Shown one piece after another: positions 1 to 7,241 of a stretch of DNA of 9,826 nucleotides (position 1 is the stretch's first letter; the number at the start of each line of letters is the position of its first letter). Position numbers and translations under genes: made by a program. This stretch comes from a virus. Its lineage: Duplodnaviria > Heunggongvirae > Uroviricota > Caudoviricetes. The notes under the pieces were generated by a model that ran no database searches, was not told where the DNA came from, and saw only the letters and a program-made list of their open reading frames with translations. The stretch is from IMG/VR virus record IMGVR_UViG_2619619132_000009. One strand, written 5' to 3'.

Positions 1-124
1 TCGGTTTACGGGAAACGGTAAACAGGGCGGCGAATGCCCTGCCATCGGACGGCACCGCCGTTGCCGCGAACAGGCTGGCAAATGCCCACACAATTAATGG
101 TGTTCCCTTTGACGGGACGCAGGA
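1..124. repeat. Left copy of the inverted repeat flanking the invertible tail-fibre segment; may extend upstream of the window
   Basis: Positions 1-124 are the exact reverse complement of 1196-1319 (checked base by base; identity breaks at 125/1195). Confidence 0.9.
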
Positions 125-353
125 TATCACTATCTCATCAGGAACAGTAACCGCCATAAGACTGGGGTCGGTGACCGCACATATGCCCGGAACATGGGAA
201 AGCTGGGATCTGAATCTGGGGGGCGGCAATGTTCTTACCGGAATTAAAGTACAGGATGTCGGTAAGAATACGGCAGATAACGTCGGCGGCGTGTATTACC
301 GGCCGTTGCAGTATCTGTTAAATGGAGCATGGGTGACGGCTGCAAGTATATAA
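1..353 (+). CDS. Phage tail-fibre protein, C-terminal portion (5' end lies upstream of the window); currently expressed tip Sv
   Basis: Open frame from position 3 to TAA at 351-353 with no stop (GLRETVNRAANALPSDGTAVAANRLANAHTINGVPFDGTQDITISSG...YYRPLQYLLNGAWVTAASI). Motifs are typical of side tail-fibre C-termini. A Tfa gene and an invertase gene lie adjacent. Confidence 0.8.
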   Translation, partial: GLRETVNRAANALPSDGTAVAANRLANAHTINGVPFDGTQDITISSGTVTAIRLGSVTAHMPGTWESWDLNLGGGNVLTGIKVQDVGKNTADNVGGVYYRPLQYLLNGAWVTAASI

Positions 354-361
354 TGATATTC

Positions 362-387
362 AGAAGGCCTTCCGGCCTTCTTTATTA
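362..387 (+). terminator. Stem-loop between the convergent tail-fibre tip and tfa genes, probable intrinsic terminator
   Basis: Perfect 8-bp stem AGAAGGCC/GGCCTTCT with a TTCC loop (362-381), followed by TTATTA. It lies between the Sv stop (353) and the tfa stop (385). Confidence 0.45.
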
Positions 388-906
388 CTGTGGCTGCTCA
401 GGCCATTTAATGGCGTTAAATTCAGCTTCTGTTTTAATGGCGGGTAGTTCCATTTTCTTCACCTGACTGATGTATGCCATCCATTGGGTAAGTGCTGCTC
501 TGTCTTCATCGCTGATGGTGCCCAGTTGTAGCTCCGTTCTCCAGTCATTAATTTTTTCATATGCCTGATTAAGATATGACTGGCGCATTGCTTCCAGTTT
601 TCTTGCGTAGTTAACCGGAATACGGGAGATTATGCCATTATCAAACTTCCAGTTTCCTGAAATATCCGTGCCTTCAGGGAGTTCATCGACCTCAACCACA
701 GAAAACCCCGCAGGATACAGCGCCGAGGCGTCCTGTGATATTGAGCAGATAACGCCGCTGTCAGGTGTTATGCAAAGTTTATATTTTTTGGTGAATAATG
801 GCAGGGATTCGTAGAAATCCTTACCATCTTCACTCTGGAAATACTGAACATTATTACCATATGGCATATTTTCAGGATAATAACGGGTTATATTTTTTAG
901 TTCCAT
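385..906 (-). CDS. tfa: Tail-fibre assembly chaperone (Tfa family)
   Basis: 173-aa ORF with a strong RBS (AGGAGG, 5-nt spacer, ATG). The C-terminal region (...DRAALTQWMAYISQVKKMELPAIKTEAEFNAIKWPEQP) resembles the conserved Tfa C-terminal domain. It sits directly downstream of the minus-strand fibre tip. Confidence 0.8.
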   Translation of the reverse strand: MELKNITRYYPENMPYGNNVQYFQSEDGKDFYESLPLFTKKYKLCITPDSGVICSISQDASALYPAGFSVVEVDELPEGTDISGNWKFDNGIISRIPVNYARKLEAMRQSYLNQAYEKINDWRTELQLGTISDEDRAALTQWMAYISQVKKMELPAIKTEAEFNAIKWPEQPQ

Positions 907-957
907 AAAATCCTCCTGGAAATAAATCTGTTTTAAAATATATTATTTACTGACTAT

Positions 958-1319
958 TTATAACTGAGATACCGTAATCCATGTACCTCCGACTAATTTT
1001 TGCAGGGGTCTGAATGCTATAAAATCGTTTGAAGCATCAACTTTACTGTCAATCTGCAGGCCTGCCATAACATTACCGTACGCAGAGTAATATGCCCCAC
1101 CGTACATTACCTGCCTGTTCTCTGCTCCCAGCCTGATATCCTGGATATATCGGGAATCCGCATCCTGCTGTGTTATACCAGAAGTGATGTTTATGTCCTG
1201 CGTCCCGTCAAAGGGAACACCATTAATTGTGTGGGCATTTGCCAGCCTGTTCGCGGCAACGGCGGTGCCGTCCGATGGCAGGGCATTCGCCGCCCTGTTT
1301 ACCGTTTCCCGTAAACCGA
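958..1319 (-). CDS. Alternative tail-fibre C-terminal cassette (Sv'), without its own start in this orientation
   Basis: Hand translation of the minus strand continues in frame from the right inverted repeat to a TAA at 958-960 (...GTQDINITSGITQQDADSRYIQDIRLGAENRQVMYGGAYYSAYGNVMAGLQIDSKVDASNDFIAFRPLQKLVGGTWITVSQL). It ends in the same RPLQxLxxGxWxT motif as the plus-strand tip and has no in-frame start codon. Confidence 0.6.
1196..1319. repeat. Right copy of the inverted repeat of the invertible tail-fibre segment
   Basis: Exact reverse complement of 1-124. Confidence 0.9.
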
Positions 1320-1331
1320 GGTTTTCAGGAA
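1306..1331. other. Putative gix/hix-like crossover site for the serine invertase (12-2-12 dyad)
   Basis: TTCCCGTAAACC-GA-GGTTTTCAGGAA: two imperfect 12-bp inverted half-sites (10/12 match) around a central GA. It resembles the recalled Mu gix site (TTCCTGTAAACCGAGGTTTTGGATAA) and sits at the outer edge of the right repeat, 65 bp before the invertase start. The left partner would be centred on window position 1. Confidence 0.5.
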
Positions 1332-1396
1332 AGCCAGGATTAACTCTGTTTTATTCCTCATGCGACAATTCCGGCTTTTTATAATAAGGAAATCGT

Positions 1397-1969
1397 ATGC
1401 TGATTGGGTATATCAGGGTGTCAACAAATGACCAGAATACGGCGCTACAAAGAAATGCGCTGGAATGTGCAGGATGTGAGCTGTTTTTCGAAGACAGAAT
1501 AAGCGGTAAGACAAGGGAGCGTCCCGGACTTAAACGCGCATTAAAGCGACTCCGGCCAGGGGATACCCTGCTGGTCTGGAAACTGGATCGCCTTGGACGC
1601 AGTATGCAGCACCTTGTCCTTTTAACAGAAGAACTCCGGCAACGCGGCGTTAACTTCCGCAGCATTACGGACAATATTGATACATCCACTCCCATGGGAC
1701 GTTTCTTTTTCCATATAATGGGCGCGCTGGCGGAAATGGAGCGGGAACTCATTATTGAACGTACACGCGCGGGTCTTGCTGCTGCCCGTGCTCAGGGGCG
1801 TCATGGCGGCAGACCTCAGAAACTGACAGAGAAAGAGCGGGAGCAAATCGCCCGTTTGCTGGCTAATGGCGAGTCCCGTAAACAAATCGCACTGATATTT
1901 GATATTGGCCTTTCCACCCTTTATCGTTATTTTCCTGCCTCACCAGCTCCGTCACCAAAAGTACCGTGA
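1397..1969 (+). CDS. pin: Serine DNA invertase of the Gin/Pin/Hin family
   Basis: 190 aa, MLIGYIRVSTNDQNTALQRNALECAGCE...VWKLDRLGRSMQHL...MGRFFFHIMGALAEMERELIIERTRAGL... Near-collinear with Mu Gin and e14 Pin as recalled, with the catalytic Ser in the RVST motif and a C-terminal HTH. Preceded by RBS AAGGA. Confidence 0.9.
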   Translation: MLIGYIRVSTNDQNTALQRNALECAGCELFFEDRISGKTRERPGLKRALKRLRPGDTLLVWKLDRLGRSMQHLVLLTEELRQRGVNFRSITDNIDTSTPMGRFFFHIMGALAEMERELIIERTRAGLAAARAQGRHGGRPQKLTEKEREQIARLLANGESRKQIALIFDIGLSTLYRYFPASPAPSPKVP

Positions 1970-5772: not shown

Positions 5773-6154
5773 TTCAGGAGGTGGCACACCTCCATCTTCT
5801 TGCTGTGGAGGAAAAACATAAGATTTAATAAAAAAGTTGAAGCATATGAACTCTCCCGCACTCGAACTGTATTTGCAGGCATCTGAATAATCGGAAAAAT
5901 AATCATTATAGATTTCCGCATTTTCAATCATTTTTCGATTTCTCGTCGTTACATGATTGTCCATAGCAGCCTCTTACGCTGGCAATTAACCAATTGACTT
6001 CTATAAATTAGTTGATTTGTTTGCTTTGCGGTATTCAAATGTACAATCATTCAGCACTTATGCGTTACAGCACCGTTTAAAATTAGTGATCAAACTCATA
6101 AATTTTCGCTAATGACATTTCGTGTTATTTGTTGTATCAATTAAATAAATCAAA

Positions 6155-6177
6155 TCGATCGTTTTTGTCGATCGATT
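6155..6177. promoter_or_regulatory. Perfect palindrome ATCGATCG-N7-CGATCGAT carrying two Dam (GATC) sites, upstream of com-mom; candidate methylation-sensitive operator
   Basis: 8-bp perfect inverted repeat with a 7-bp T-rich spacer. GATC at 6157-6160 and 6170-6173, with a third GATC at 6088-6091, all within about 135 bp upstream of the com ATG in an AT-rich divergent intergenic region. Confidence 0.45.
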
Positions 6178-6220
6178 GAGTGATAAAGATATCAACAACA
6201 AAGCAGGAGGTTATGCGGCC

Positions 6221-6421
6221 ATGTATCGAAACATACGGTGCCGACATTGTAACAAGCTACTGGCACGAGCCAGCTTCAGTTATCTGGAAGTTAAATGTCC
6301 GCGCTGTAAAACCCTCAATCAAATCACATCTCAGAGCGCCACAGAGCACCCCACATACACAAGGAAATCCTGTCGTGGGGAACAGAAAGCAAGTTACATC
6401 CCGTATCATCAGCACGCCTGA
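6221..6421 (+). CDS. com: Com-like zinc-ribbon translational activator (phage Mu Com family)
   Basis: [35 protein letters not shown]... has Cys at 7, 10, 26 and 29 (CxxC-N15-CxxC) and strong resemblance to recalled Mu Com (MKSIRCKNCNKLL...IRCPRCK). RBS AGGAGG lies 10 nt upstream; the 3' end overlaps the next gene. Confidence 0.75.
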
Positions 6422-7112
6422 ACTTATTCACTATAACGACAATATCGTCGGTTATGGCTCCCGTGAGTTACGGGTTGAGACAATAAGTTGCTGGCTGGCC
6501 CGGCTGGTCGTCGTCAATAAACATTACAGCCATCGTTTCGTAAATAATTCCTACCTTCATCTGGGCATATTTTCAGAACGGGAGCTGGTTGGCGTAATGC
6601 AATGGGGTTATGCCCTTAATCCAAACAATGGTGCACGCGTCGTAACTGGCACGCAGAACCGCGAATATATGGAGCTTAACCGGTTATGGCTGCATGACTG
6701 TATGCCGAGAAACTCCGAATCAAGGGCAATCAGTTACGCGCTCAAACTAATCAGACAACTTTATCCGCAGGTGCAGTGGGTTCAGTCGTTTGCAGATGAG
6801 CGTTGTGGCTGTCTTGGTGTCGTGTACCAGGCAAGCAATTTTGATTATGTAGGCAGTCATGAAACAACATTCTATGAACTTGATGGCGAGTGGTATCACG
6901 AGATTTGCAAGAATGCAATCAAACGAGGAGGACAGCGAGGTGAACATCTGCGGGCTAATATCGACAGAGCCAGTGTTCATAAATTCCGTCAGTTTCGTTA
7001 CATCCGGTTTCTGGACAAGAGAGCCAGAAAACGCCTTAACACAAAGCTATTCAAAGTCCAGCCTTACCCAAAACCACAAACAGTTAAAACTGGTTTGAAA
7101 GAGAGTGAATGA
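6375..7112 (+). CDS. mom: Mom-like DNA-modification enzyme (phage Mu Mom family); start uncertain, GTG 6375 proposed
   Basis: Long ORF in the +1 frame relative to com. Downstream motifs ([50 protein letters not shown]) resemble Mom-family proteins as recalled. GTG at 6375 is preceded by AAGGA at a 9-nt spacing and lies inside the com 3' end; this gives 245 aa. Confidence 0.65.
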
Positions 7113-7148
7113 ACGCTTAAAAACTCATTCTAAAACTCAAAAGAAAAG

Positions 7149-7190
7149 CGCCGATTTAGTATCAAATAAGTTGCGTATCGGCGTTTTTCA
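7149..7190 (+). terminator. Possible intrinsic terminator after mom (7-bp GC stem, long loop, T5)
   Basis: CGCCGAT (7149-7155) pairs with ATCGGCG (7177-7183), followed by TTTTT (7184-7188), 37 nt after the mom stop. The 21-nt loop is unusually long. Confidence 0.3.
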
Positions 7191-7223
7191 GCGGTATCAA
7201 ATGAAATGCAAATCGGTATCAAA
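7158..7223. repeat. Three direct copies of GTATCAAA (two as the 10-mer CGGTATCAAA) in the non-coding junction
   Basis: GTATCAAA at 7159-7166, 7194-7201 and 7216-7223; CGGTATCAAA at 7192-7201 and 7214-7223 (22-bp spacing). Confidence 0.5.
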
Positions 7224-7241
7224 AAAATCGCCGCGCTATAG

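Follow-up and report, generated by a model that had tools for sequence, protein, structure and literature searches.

A Mu-type transposable prophage of the Escherichia coli Sp18 family with a resident esterase module between its invertase and com genes

Results and Discussion

Parent Phage and Closest Relatives

Positions 1–7240 of the window (the whole stretch of 9,826 nucleotides that was analysed, an entire 9.8-kb contig) very probably form the right arm of a transposable prophage, of Mu type and from the E. coli Sp18 family, which carries a resident late module and has transposed into an Ag43 gene. The gene order that the original prediction matched to the right arm of phage Mu was recovered in full (fibre segment, gin-like invertase, com, mom and phage end), as were the roughly 4.2 kb between the invertase and com, where Mu, D108 and SfMu have less than 100 bp. 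Counted from the gin stop to the com start, the gap measures 4,251 bp (3,474 bp once IS1 and the target duplication are subtracted), compared to 94 bp in Mu, which has no esterase module.

The left arm of this copy lies outside the contig, and the type of the parent phage was read from near-identical relatives. Among 5,426 complete E. coli genomes, about 22–25 have a prophage that lacks IS1 but is otherwise 99.8% identical to window positions 1–7240, and Sp18-type prophages occur in 168 further genomes of this set; the arrangement with the esterase module is present in approximately 3.5% of complete E. coli genomes. The near-identical relatives have complete Mu-collinear genomes (repressor, ner, A, B, gam, Mor/C, lysis, head, tail, S, gin, module, com, mom), with 30–78% amino-acid identity to Mu gene by gene, and no integrase was found in the complete ones. 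The insertion sites of the copies, Sp18 included, are unrelated (an SgrR-family regulator gene, sorM, a JAB-domain gene, Ag43 and Stx phages), which argues for transposition and not integration. It had been left undecided whether the parent is a transposable Mu-like phage or a lambdoid or P2-like one; the collinearity of the A/B, head and tail genes in these relatives answers this question and, as judged by sequence, the parent is truly a transposable phage of the Mu type.

A lambdoid or P2-like parent that captured a gin-com-mom block could be suggested by the esterase trio, which is typical of lambdoid phages, and by the absence of a transposase from the window itself. However, this origin is extremely improbable, as the 99.8% identical copies are embedded in Mu-collinear prophages that have A and B, lack an integrase and lie at unrelated sites, and as the right-end repeats described below are mirrored at the left end of the relatives. 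The predicted mosaic nature of the Mu-like element did hold, since lambdoid/Stx prophages carry the same esterase-DUF1378-DUF826 trio.

The closest known system is prophage Sp18 of O157:H7 Sakai (ECs_4943 to ECs_4998), a Mu-like phage that has been described as apparently intact and as having an invertible region of its own (PMC2669165). From the fibre to the end (ECs_4989 to ECs_4998), it has the gene order of the window: a single-chaperone invertible segment, the invertase, a 680-aa esterase, DUF1378, DUF826, an antisense ORF, com and mom, and it shares the terminal sequence, the end repeats and the late box upstream of the esterase. The identities to the window are 81% for Gin (ECs_4992), 66% for the esterase, 74% for DUF1378 and 72% for DUF826. 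Unlike the window, Sp18 has an unrelated gene in the antisense slot (154 aa, phrog_26524), lacks IS1 and is inserted in sorM, not Ag43. The original prediction had implied that the cargo arrangement is unusual; because it is known from the Sp18 family, it is ordinary, as is the prophage type, which has already been sequenced (Sp18 was published in 2001 and 2009). The Muvirus members Mu, D108 and SfMu resemble the window in being collinear overall and in having a Gin-type invertase, gix sites identical at 21–23 of 26 positions, com overlapping mom, a GATC pair upstream of com and the end directly after mom, but their protein identities to the window type are only 30–78%.

Invertible Segment and Invertase

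1–1319, no strand assigned: invertible host-range segment (G-segment analogue, about 1.3 kb) with inverted-repeat arms
3–353, plus strand: Sv, the variable C-terminal tail-fibre part in the present orientation, 116 codons (phrog_1833 of the PHROG tail-fibre families, E 8e-33)
385–906, minus strand: tail-fibre assembly (U'-like) gene, the only one in the segment (Pfam Caudo_TAP, E 5e-19; phrog_136, E 5e-56)
958–1332, minus strand: Sv', the alternative fibre C-terminus, with an uninterrupted frame between the gix site and the stop codon
1306–1331, no strand assigned: gixR-like recombination site TTCCCGTAAACCGAGGTTTTCAGGAA, with a best 26-mer that agrees with the Mu gixR region at 23/26 positions
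1397–1969, plus strand: Gin-family serine DNA invertase, 190 aa (Pfam Resolvase, E 2e-51, and HTH_7)

The arms of the segment (1–142 and 1178–1319) are 95% complementary. Position 1 of the window, which corresponds to position 38387 of the complete relative L001, falls on the central TC of the left gix-like site, and the right crossover GA lies at 1318–1319. In L001, the left site reads TTATCGATAACGTCGGTTTACGGGAA and agrees with Mu gixL at 22/26 positions by our own count. As the start falls on this central TC, the whole of 1–1319 is invertible segment; thus, of the fibre gene that had been predicted, the variable C-termini are in the window and the constant part is absent. Sv and the 3' end of the L001 gene annotated as 'phage tail protein' are 100% identical, whereas Sv' shares its first ~45 residues with Sv, diverges thereafter and joins the constant part only after inversion. 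The G segment of Mu is 3 kb long with two chaperone genes, whereas the 1.3-kb segment of the window has one, whose product shares 32% identity with U and U' of Mu. The invertase is 74% identical to Mu Gin.

com-mom, Phage End and Host Junction

6152–6178, no strand assigned: mom control region with a GATC pair as in Mu (AAATCGATCG...GATCGATT), from an alignment with Mu, SfMu and Sp18
6221–6421, plus strand: com, a 66-aa zinc-ribbon translational activator of mom (Pfam Zn_ribbon_Com, E 1e-12)
6375–7112, plus strand: mom, a 245-aa DNA adenine-modification enzyme, overlapping com (Pfam Mom, E 8e-78)
7159–7240, plus strand: prophage right end (attR analogue), with three direct GTATCAAA repeats at 7159, 7194 and 7216
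7241–9200, plus strand: host DNA, part of an Ag43/Cah autotransporter adhesin gene, namely its 3' two-thirds (Pfam AIDA, AC_1, Pertactin, Autotransporter)

Com is 44% identical to its Mu counterpart and 95% to that of Sp18, and for Mom these values are 78% and 97%. The prophage terminus reads ...GCCGCGCTATA, and the right-end repeats (three matches, compared to 0.34 expected by chance) have three inverted copies at the left end of L001, an arrangement at both ends that looks like that of MuA-binding sites. Homology to the other prophage copies stops at 7240, from where the host flank matches intact Ag43 genes at 96.7% identity; the prophage interrupts this adhesin gene. The termini are T(G/A)...TA (...TATA) and not TG...CA (...TTCA) as in Mu, and the apparent target repeats, seen as direct repeats at three insertions, are 4 bp and not 5 bp long, so the transposition chemistry may differ from that of Mu in detail.

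A NanS-p-Type Esterase with a Mu-Like-Specific N-Domain

2055–4109, plus strand: NanS-p-type sialate 9-O-acetylesterase, 684 aa (Pfam SASA and DUF6645; NanS and NanS-p structure matches)

The esterase proposed to lie between the invertase and com is present, and its resemblance to lambdoid-prophage cargo was upheld, the protein being of the NanS-p type. It matches the solved structures of NanS (3PT5, E 2e-117) and of the NanS-p C-domain (6YP6, E 7e-98), with an N-domain specific to Mu-like prophages (residues ~5–80), a linker, a NanS catalytic domain (110–428) and a lectin-like C-domain (469–683); the motifs GQSN and RDSHFS are found at residues 122 and 406, respectively. The lambdoid/Stx NanS-p cassette (933W L0105/z1466; phi24B gp84) likewise consists of SASA/NanS and the lectin-like DUF6645, followed by DUF1378 and DUF826. 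However, the lambdoid/Stx esterase has a DUF1737 N-domain, which Pfam did not find in the window esterase; in place of this capsid-anchor domain there is another beta domain, of ~80 residues, together with the linker. This type of N-domain occurs only in Mu-like prophages (E. coli, Shigella, Salmonella), always downstream of the invertase. Amino-acid identities of the window esterase, domain by domain, are as follows.

Lambdoid ZH49 allele: N-domain 17%, catalytic 88%, lectin 91%
Sp18: N-domain 57%, catalytic 70%, lectin 73%

The breakpoint of recombination with lambdoid alleles falls on the boundary between the domains, near window position 2416 (about codon 120). The body of the esterase, comprising the catalytic and C-terminal domains, is ~90% identical to the lambdoid allele (88–91%), and the module still exchanges sequence with lambdoid/Stx phages.

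Remainder of the Module and IS1

4254–4436, plus strand: DUF1378 small hydrophobic protein, 60 aa (Pfam PF07125, E 1e-31)
4472–4726, plus strand: DUF826 protein, 84 aa (Pfam PF05696, E 6e-16)
4894–5931, minus strand: small antisense ORF in a variable slot, split by IS1, 86 aa once IS1 is removed
4996–5763, plus strand: IS1 (IS1F-like), with 23-nt terminal inverted repeats and a 9-bp target duplication

In the window, the module follows the invertase of a myovirus-type transposable phage, whereas the esterase trio of lambdoid/Stx prophages lies between Q/stx and the holin gene; DUF1378 likewise comes after the esterase there, and DUF826 just before the holin gene.

The predicted IS1 is present within the cargo. 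It is 99.2% identical to annotated IS1F, with a TGG to TAG change in insB at 5537, and is flanked by the target duplication CAAAGTGAT (4987–4995 and 5764–5772). None of the near-identical prophages has this IS1, which is thus a later insertion, private to this copy, and destroyed the small antisense ORF. The latter had been listed as a small divergent gene, but it is not intact, as IS1 interrupts it; once reconstructed, the 86-aa protein matches WP_000571916 of L001 at 100% identity. Searches of this ORF against Pfam, PHROG and PADLOC gave no match.

The description of the cargo as inserted is correct for IS1, the region's only recent insertion, but not for the esterase module. The Sp18 family always has this module between its invertase and com-mom, and in this group of Mu-like phages it is old and resident, because it occupies the same slot in two diverged E. 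coli lineages, with esterases only 66% identical, and a Salmonella Mu-like prophage also has it, with an N-domain 34% identical.

Late-Promoter-Like Box and Proposed Expression of the Esterase

1974–2024, plus strand: late-promoter-like sequence, comprising the box TTTTTGAATTTCCGCAAAAC (1974–1993), a -10-like TATTCT (2014–2019) and CTGACTC

In L001, the box was found with at most one mismatch in only three places, upstream of the lysozyme gene, head gene I and the esterase, while shuffles gave a mean of 0.56 matches even at three mismatches. Sp18 has the box at the same three places, the esterase copy having three mismatches. This late box was defined from just two promoters per phage, and no matching box was found at the tail and mom promoters. 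Since the box before the esterase is the same as that before the lysis and head genes, the module appears to be wired into the late regulon, and we infer a late-promoter function for this copy.

One reading of these data is that the esterase is a virion component and not cargo that benefits the lysogen, the N-terminal beta domain anchoring it to the Mu-type particle as DUF1737 does for gp84 on the phi24B capsid. A 2026 preprint reports that DUF1737 of gp84 from this Stx phage forms hexamers on capsid hexons, and it is exactly DUF1737 that is swapped here, for a domain confined to Mu-like prophages. The position of the lambdoid breakpoint on the domain boundary, the late-promoter-like box and an SSS(E)P motif at the domain junction, which resembles SISSP in 933W, are in line with this analogy. 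However, Mu has no esterase gene, which makes it dispensable for particle assembly, and the N-domain would be equally suited to secretion, oligomerisation or substrate binding; we regard a virion role as possible but doubtful.

An age of the module even greater than residence in this phage group is unlikely, namely that it was ancestral to Mu-like phages and lost by the Muvirus lineage (Mu, D108, SfMu), with no gain from lambdoid phages. The special N-domain in the same slot of three deeply diverged lineages (window type, Sp18 type and Salmonella) would fit such an ancestry, as would the apparent wiring to a late promoter of the kind that the phage itself uses. Against it, gin is followed directly by com in all sequenced Muvirus members and in Yersinia Mu-like phages, and the trio is far commoner in lambdoid phages (349 phage records).

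For lambdoid phages, the enzyme activity and late expression of NanS-p have been reviewed (PMC8065619); for the Mu-like copies, we infer both the activity and the timing. In the scheme that we propose for the resident module, a Mor/C-family late activator would switch on a promoter that lies directly upstream of the esterase gene and has the layout of the lysis and head promoters, and with a promoter of this type the enzyme would be made late in lytic growth. The esterase would leave the cell when it lyses or travel on the particles, and may strip 9-O-acetyl groups from mucin sialic acids, as lambdoid NanS-p does.

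The element is the right end of a transposable Mu-like prophage

ORF, Pfam and PHROG scans confirmed the gene order of the Mu right arm that the original prediction had read in the window, and gave the following features:

3-353, plus strand, tail-fibre C-terminus (Sv)
385-906, minus strand, tail-fibre assembly gene
958-1332, minus strand, second fibre C-terminus (Sv')
1397-1969, plus strand, Resolvase-family invertase
2055-4109, plus strand, 684-aa SASA and DUF6645 protein
4254-4436, plus strand, DUF1378
4472-4726, plus strand, DUF826
4996-5763, plus strand, IS1
6221-6421, plus strand, com (Pfam Zn_ribbon_Com)
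6375-7112, plus strand, mom (Pfam Mom)
7241-9200, plus strand, 3' two-thirds of an Ag43/Cah autotransporter gene

The window is the entire 9,826-bp contig JHDL01000048.1 of E. coli 1-110-08_S3_C1, and the content of the left arm was read from relatives. A megablast search of 5,426 complete E. coli genomes returned a set of genomes with 99.8% identity to window 1-7240 minus exactly IS1 and its duplication, and every match to these relatives stopped at position 7240. In NZ_CM128582 (locus L001, with a complete near-identical prophage), the match covers the right end of a prophage of 38.6 kb, whose insertion has split a gene for an SgrR-family regulator. Among the genes of this prophage are those for a repressor, a ner-like protein, a transposase of the Mu type and an AAA+ B protein with 48% identity to that of Mu. 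The prophage further has Gam, GemA, an activator of the Mor/C family, lysis genes, head and tail genes of the Mu type and S, and its right part holds the invertible segment, gin, four extra genes, com and mom. The best-conserved proteins relative to Mu are Gin (74%) and Mom (78%), and transposase A is recognizable in its C-terminal part only. The insertion sites of the copies are unrelated (the SgrR-family regulator gene, sorM, a JAB-domain gene of a CP4-type island and, in the window, Ag43), and further copies lie within Stx phages or another prophage.

The original prediction had left it undecided whether the parent was a transposable Mu-like phage or a lambdoid or P2-like one, and had proposed to look at the upstream genes and to compare the whole prophage with Mu. 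Both comparisons point the same way: in the 99.8%-identical prophages, a 'Mu transposase C-terminal domain' protein and an AAA ATPase, encoded outside the stretch covered by the window, come after the repressor and ner, with no integrase, and 35 of the 40 L001 proteins match Mu with the order kept, at 30-78% identity. A lambdoid or P2 parent is thus ruled out, as far as the near-identical copies speak for the window copy. Since these copies are collinear with Mu, occupy varied insertion sites and carry inverted end repeats, the parent of window 1-7240 is a transposable Mu-like phage.

Elsewhere in these prophages, a minus-strand 'tRNA-OTHER' is annotated between the F-like and the G-like head gene (L001 23674-23753), and the copy of JKHS016 (L008 24600-32300) is rearranged, with a portal-to-tape-measure inversion plus deletions.

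Prophage ends and insertion site

Three copies of GTATCAAA (GATACAAA-type repeats) lie at 7159-7223, in the final 82 bp of the element, where 0.34 would be expected by chance, and three inverted copies lie within about 170 bp of the L001 left end. This is the arrangement expected for transposase-binding sites, which these repeats putatively represent. The terminus reads ...GCCGCGCTATA, identically in the window and in Sp18, the Mu-like prophage of E. coli O157:H7 Sakai, whereas that of Mu reads ...GCGCCGCTTCA. The ends are 5'-T(G/A)TAACC ... GCGCTATA-3' (window 7230-7245) and not TG...CA as in Mu. Termini were read at L001 6210-6225 and 44845-44855, at L003 (Sp18) 965-975 and 39720-39730, and at L008 (the JKHS016 copy) 7700-7710 and 39655-39665, and these three independent insertions are flanked by 4-bp direct repeats (AACA, TAAA and TAAG). 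A 5-bp target duplication was also considered; when all plausible terminus registers were tried, only 4-bp repeats fitted all three insertions. Hence, unlike Mu, with its 5-bp target-site duplication and TG...CA termini, the window type and the Sp18 family share ends of their own.

In the source strain, the prophage has inactivated an Ag43 adhesin gene. The truncated Ag43/Cah gene keeps 652 C-terminal codons, and its remnant lies in a CP4-type island with DUF905 and DUF932 genes after it (window 7241-9826), a stretch for which the best identity in a complete genome was only 96.7%.

The arrangement is that of the Sp18 family

The distance from the gin stop to the com start is 4,251 bp, compared to 94 bp or less in Mu and SfMu, which agrees with the earlier estimate of some 4.2 kb where Mu has almost nothing. 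The same gene order, from fibre to mom, is found in Sp18 (ECs_4943 to ECs_4998), the closest published relative, whose right arm reads:

ECs_4989, fibre
ECs_4990, chaperone (minus strand)
ECs_4991, second fibre tip (minus strand)
ECs_4992, invertase
ECs_4993, 679-aa esterase
ECs_4994, DUF1378
ECs_4995, DUF826
ECs_4996, antisense ORF
ECs_4997, com
ECs_4998, mom

Sp18 has been compared with Mu and described as apparently intact with a different invertible region (Asadulghani et al. 2009, PMC2669165), and a related copy is known from strain FRIK804 (PMC7430833). The stretch from gin to the antisense ORF was present at 80% coverage or more as the window type in 25 and as the Sp18 type in 168 of the 5,426 genomes. 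The original prediction had allowed that the arrangement would be ordinary if a characterized phage family shared it, and Sp18 shows that it is. Although the structure between gin and com had been seen correctly, what was called inserted cargo is a resident, conserved module of the Sp18 family. In summary, the window element is a routine member of this published family of Mu-like prophages, whose sequence became public with the Sakai genome, and its right-arm order is here re-described. In the searchable literature, we found nothing linking NanS-p to Mu-like phages or mentioning ECs4993 to ECs4996. The esterase domain mosaic, the Mu-like-specific N-terminal domain and the late-promoter-like box described below are mildly new, none of them having been found discussed in that literature.

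An invertible fibre segment adjoins the invertase

The fibre region is bounded by inverted repeats (1-142 and 1178-1319, 95% complementary). At the right boundary lies TTCCCGTAAACCGAGGTTTTCAGGAA (1306-1331), the best 26-mer of which agrees with the Mu gixR region at 23 of 26 positions; taken together, the gix-like sites share 21-23 of 26 positions with Mu gix. Comparison with the complete relative L001 shows the first two window bases to be the central TC of the left gix-like site, so that 1-1319 forms an invertible segment of 1.3 kb, with the fibre's constant part outside the window. The two fibre tips have their first ~45 residues in common, and the invertase is a Resolvase and HTH_7 protein, 74% identical to Gin. 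By sequence, the window thus appears to have the features of the Gin/Hin/Cin/Pin systems, with a serine invertase adjoining inverted 26-bp sites and alternative fibre tips.

The segment holds two fibre tips and one assembly gene, and in the present orientation no chaperone gene follows the expressed tip (3-353). Sp18 shows this one-chaperone asymmetry too, in contrast to Mu with its U and U'. It was probably at the inverted repeat of the segment that the assembly broke, possibly because both orientations were present in the culture.

The esterase module is shared with lambdoid phages

The 684-aa protein matches E. coli NanS (PDB 3PT5) over residues 110-428 (E 2e-117) and the C-terminal domain of NanS-p (6YP6) over residues 469-683 (E 7e-98; Pfam DUF6645, E 7e-68), with GQSN kept at residue 122 and the histidine block RDSHFS at 406. 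Both the catalytic and the lectin-like domain being present, it fits a predicted NanS-p sialate 9-O-acetylesterase. Homologues occur in 349 phage records, nearly all of Stx or other lambdoid phages, in which they lie 3' of Q, tRNA genes and stx and 5' of the holin gene, and are followed by DUF1378 and DUF826. As the same genes stand in the same succession, the trio of the Mu-like phage is the lambdoid late trio. In Stx and lambdoid phages, NanS-p enzymes are active, late-expressed Neu5,9Ac2 esterases, and lysogens that carry them grow better on mucin sialic acids (review PMC8065619). A hairpin, read by eye, lies at 4738-4759 between the convergent DUF826 and antisense ORFs.

Between the window and Sp18, the flanking Com and Mom are 95% and 97% identical, whereas within the module identity falls to 81% for Gin, 66% for the esterase, 74% for DUF1378 and 72% for DUF826, and the antisense ORFs are unrelated. 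The esterase itself was compared by domain with Sp18 and with the lambdoid NanS-p allele of strain ZH49:

Identity of the window esterase by domain
N-terminal part: ZH49 17%, Sp18 57%
Catalytic domain: ZH49 88%, Sp18 70%
Second linker: ZH49 97%, Sp18 24%
Lectin-like domain: ZH49 91%, Sp18 73%

Nucleotide homology with ZH49 begins at window 2416, at about codon 120, the end of the N-terminal part. These identities, together with the position at which homology starts, imply that the esterase body was swapped with lambdoid alleles by recombination at a domain boundary, an exchange during which the N-terminal part stayed of the Mu-like type. The claim that the esterase resembles lambdoid-prophage cargo and that the element is a mosaic therefore holds, given the context in the 349 records and the 88-91% domain identity to ZH49. 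The identical 684-aa esterase is present on at least 1,000 public contigs, and identical esterases are also found in S. sonnei. Mu-like prophages are a second, unremarked source of sialate esterase genes, carried by about 3.5% of complete E. coli genomes, and their esterases trade catalytic and lectin domains with Stx and lambdoid phages.

Antisense ORF, IS1 and com-mom

Between DUF826 and com, a small minus-strand ORF (4894-5931) is interrupted by IS1; with IS1 removed, it encodes 86 aa and is identical to an annotated gene of the relatives. In Sp18, an unrelated antisense ORF of 154 aa (L003 38127-38591) occupies this place, which looks like a variable accessory-gene slot; the DNA at 5801-6200 is AT-rich (33% GC). 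In Pfam, PHROG and PADLOC scans, neither the window ORF nor ECs_4996 matched a defence system or could be assigned a function.

IS1 has the make-up of the 768-bp element, including insA/insB with the A6C frameshift site, terminal inverted repeats of 23 bp and a target duplication of 9 bp (CAAAGTGAT). Its identity to an annotated IS1F is 99.2%, with six differing positions, one of which (TGG to TAG at 5537, codon 5536-5538) turns Trp-98 of InsB into a stop. The same insB split is found in two of three sibling assemblies and an intact insB in the third; as the assembly is a draft, this stop codon, whether real or an assembly effect, needs caution. IS1 is absent from all near-identical prophages and is a late, private event that inactivates the antisense ORF.

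The com and mom genes overlap by 47 nt. Upstream of com, a GATC pair and its surroundings align with Mu (AAATCGATCG...GATCGATT), with the pair lying about 30 nt nearer to the com start than in Mu. Since this leaves no room for a promoter between the GATC pair and com (6088-6220), the architecture of the mom promoter may differ from that of Mu; neither OxyR/Dam control nor a C-dependent promoter was located for the com-mom operon. Homology to Mu starts about 85 bp upstream of com, which places the DNA that is extra relative to Mu at about 1970-6137.

A late-promoter-like box precedes the esterase gene

In L001, the regions upstream of the lysozyme gene (lys) and of head gene I have a 20-nt box in common (TTTCTGAnnTnCCGCAAAnC), with TTA(C/T)GCT about 21 nt beyond it, and ATAATCCCGCACCTGCCAC upstream of lys in Mu resembles ATATTCCGCAAATCCTGCCCAC here. 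Allowing one mismatch at most, the box occurs at only three places in the 48.5-kb L001 locus. Two of them precede lys and I, and the third, at 40360, corresponds to window 1974-1993 and lies 81 nt ahead of the start of the esterase gene. The chance of such a hit in L001 is estimated at about 1e-3 (49/4^16 per position x 97,000 positions), and shuffled L001 gave 0.56 hits even at three mismatches. The esterase box is followed by a -10-like TATTCT (2014-2019) and then by CTGACTC, as after the lys -10 region, with the spacing one base off. Sp18 has the box at the same three places, its esterase copy with three mismatches. Window 1974-2024 is hence a candidate late promoter of the esterase, from which the Mor/C-family activator of the phage would drive the module as a late operon, late as it is in lambdoid phages.

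Neither the tail nor the mom promoter showed a box, nor did the region upstream of com, and a generic scan for sigma-70 promoters and terminators returned sites no more numerous than in shuffled sequence. The GGTTATGCGGCC upstream of com had been likened to the -10 regions of lys and I and was dismissed, as it overlaps the com ribosome-binding site and start codon. A box one nucleotide shorter (TTTGAATACCGCAAAGC, 6021-6039, minus strand) points to the small antisense ORF; it is not significant alone and has no counterpart in Sp18, where another gene occupies this position.

The esterase N-terminal domain is specific to Mu-like prophages

Pfam detected no DUF1737 in the window esterase or in ECs_4993 of Sp18, while the control, L0105 of phage 933W, was positive (E 4e-18), and the N-terminal part of the window esterase is only 13-17% identical to lambdoid alleles. 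Its first ~108 residues (window 2055-2380) belong to no Pfam family and, among 50,697 phage records, match only Mu-like phages inserted in two Stx phages. A word-indexed search for remote homologues returned fragments of the same protein only, and an exhaustive HMMER search of 1.84 billion representative proteins gave three matches, all of them truncated esterases. A profile search added copies in Salmonella enterica (34-38% identity), one on a contig with genes for Mu Gp45, Gp46, baseplate J and Gp48, then a fibre gene, a chaperone and fibre tip in inverted orientation, a resolvase, two small ORFs and the esterase. All occurrences of the domain were thus in Mu-like prophages, from E. coli, Shigella and Salmonella, and the Salmonella copy in the same setting indicates that its tie to the slot 3' of the invertase is old.

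AlphaFold2, run on a 10-sequence alignment, modelled residues 7-79 as six beta strands (pLDDT 70-84) with a disordered linker after them. An SSS(E)P motif at residue 108 has a parallel in the 933W enzyme, SISSP at residue 55. A 2026 preprint describes the DUF1737 of the phi24B esterase gp84 as the capsid-binding part of a decoration protein. By analogy, the replacement of a capsid-anchor domain in a phage with a different virion is suggestive of an anchor swap. We therefore raise, as a long shot, that the ~80-residue all-beta domain may be a particle-anchoring module specific to Mu-type virions.

A different N-terminal domain at the position of the lambdoid anchor, together with a putative late-type promoter, offers a concrete test of anchor swapping between unrelated virions. 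If this reading is right, phage sialate esterases would be modular, pairing an exchangeable mucin-acting body with an anchor specific to the virion type, and the catalytic and lectin body would recombine freely at the domain boundary between lambdoid and Mu-like phages. Particles of Sp18-type myophages would in that case bear an enzyme that modifies mucin, expressed under the control of a late promoter.
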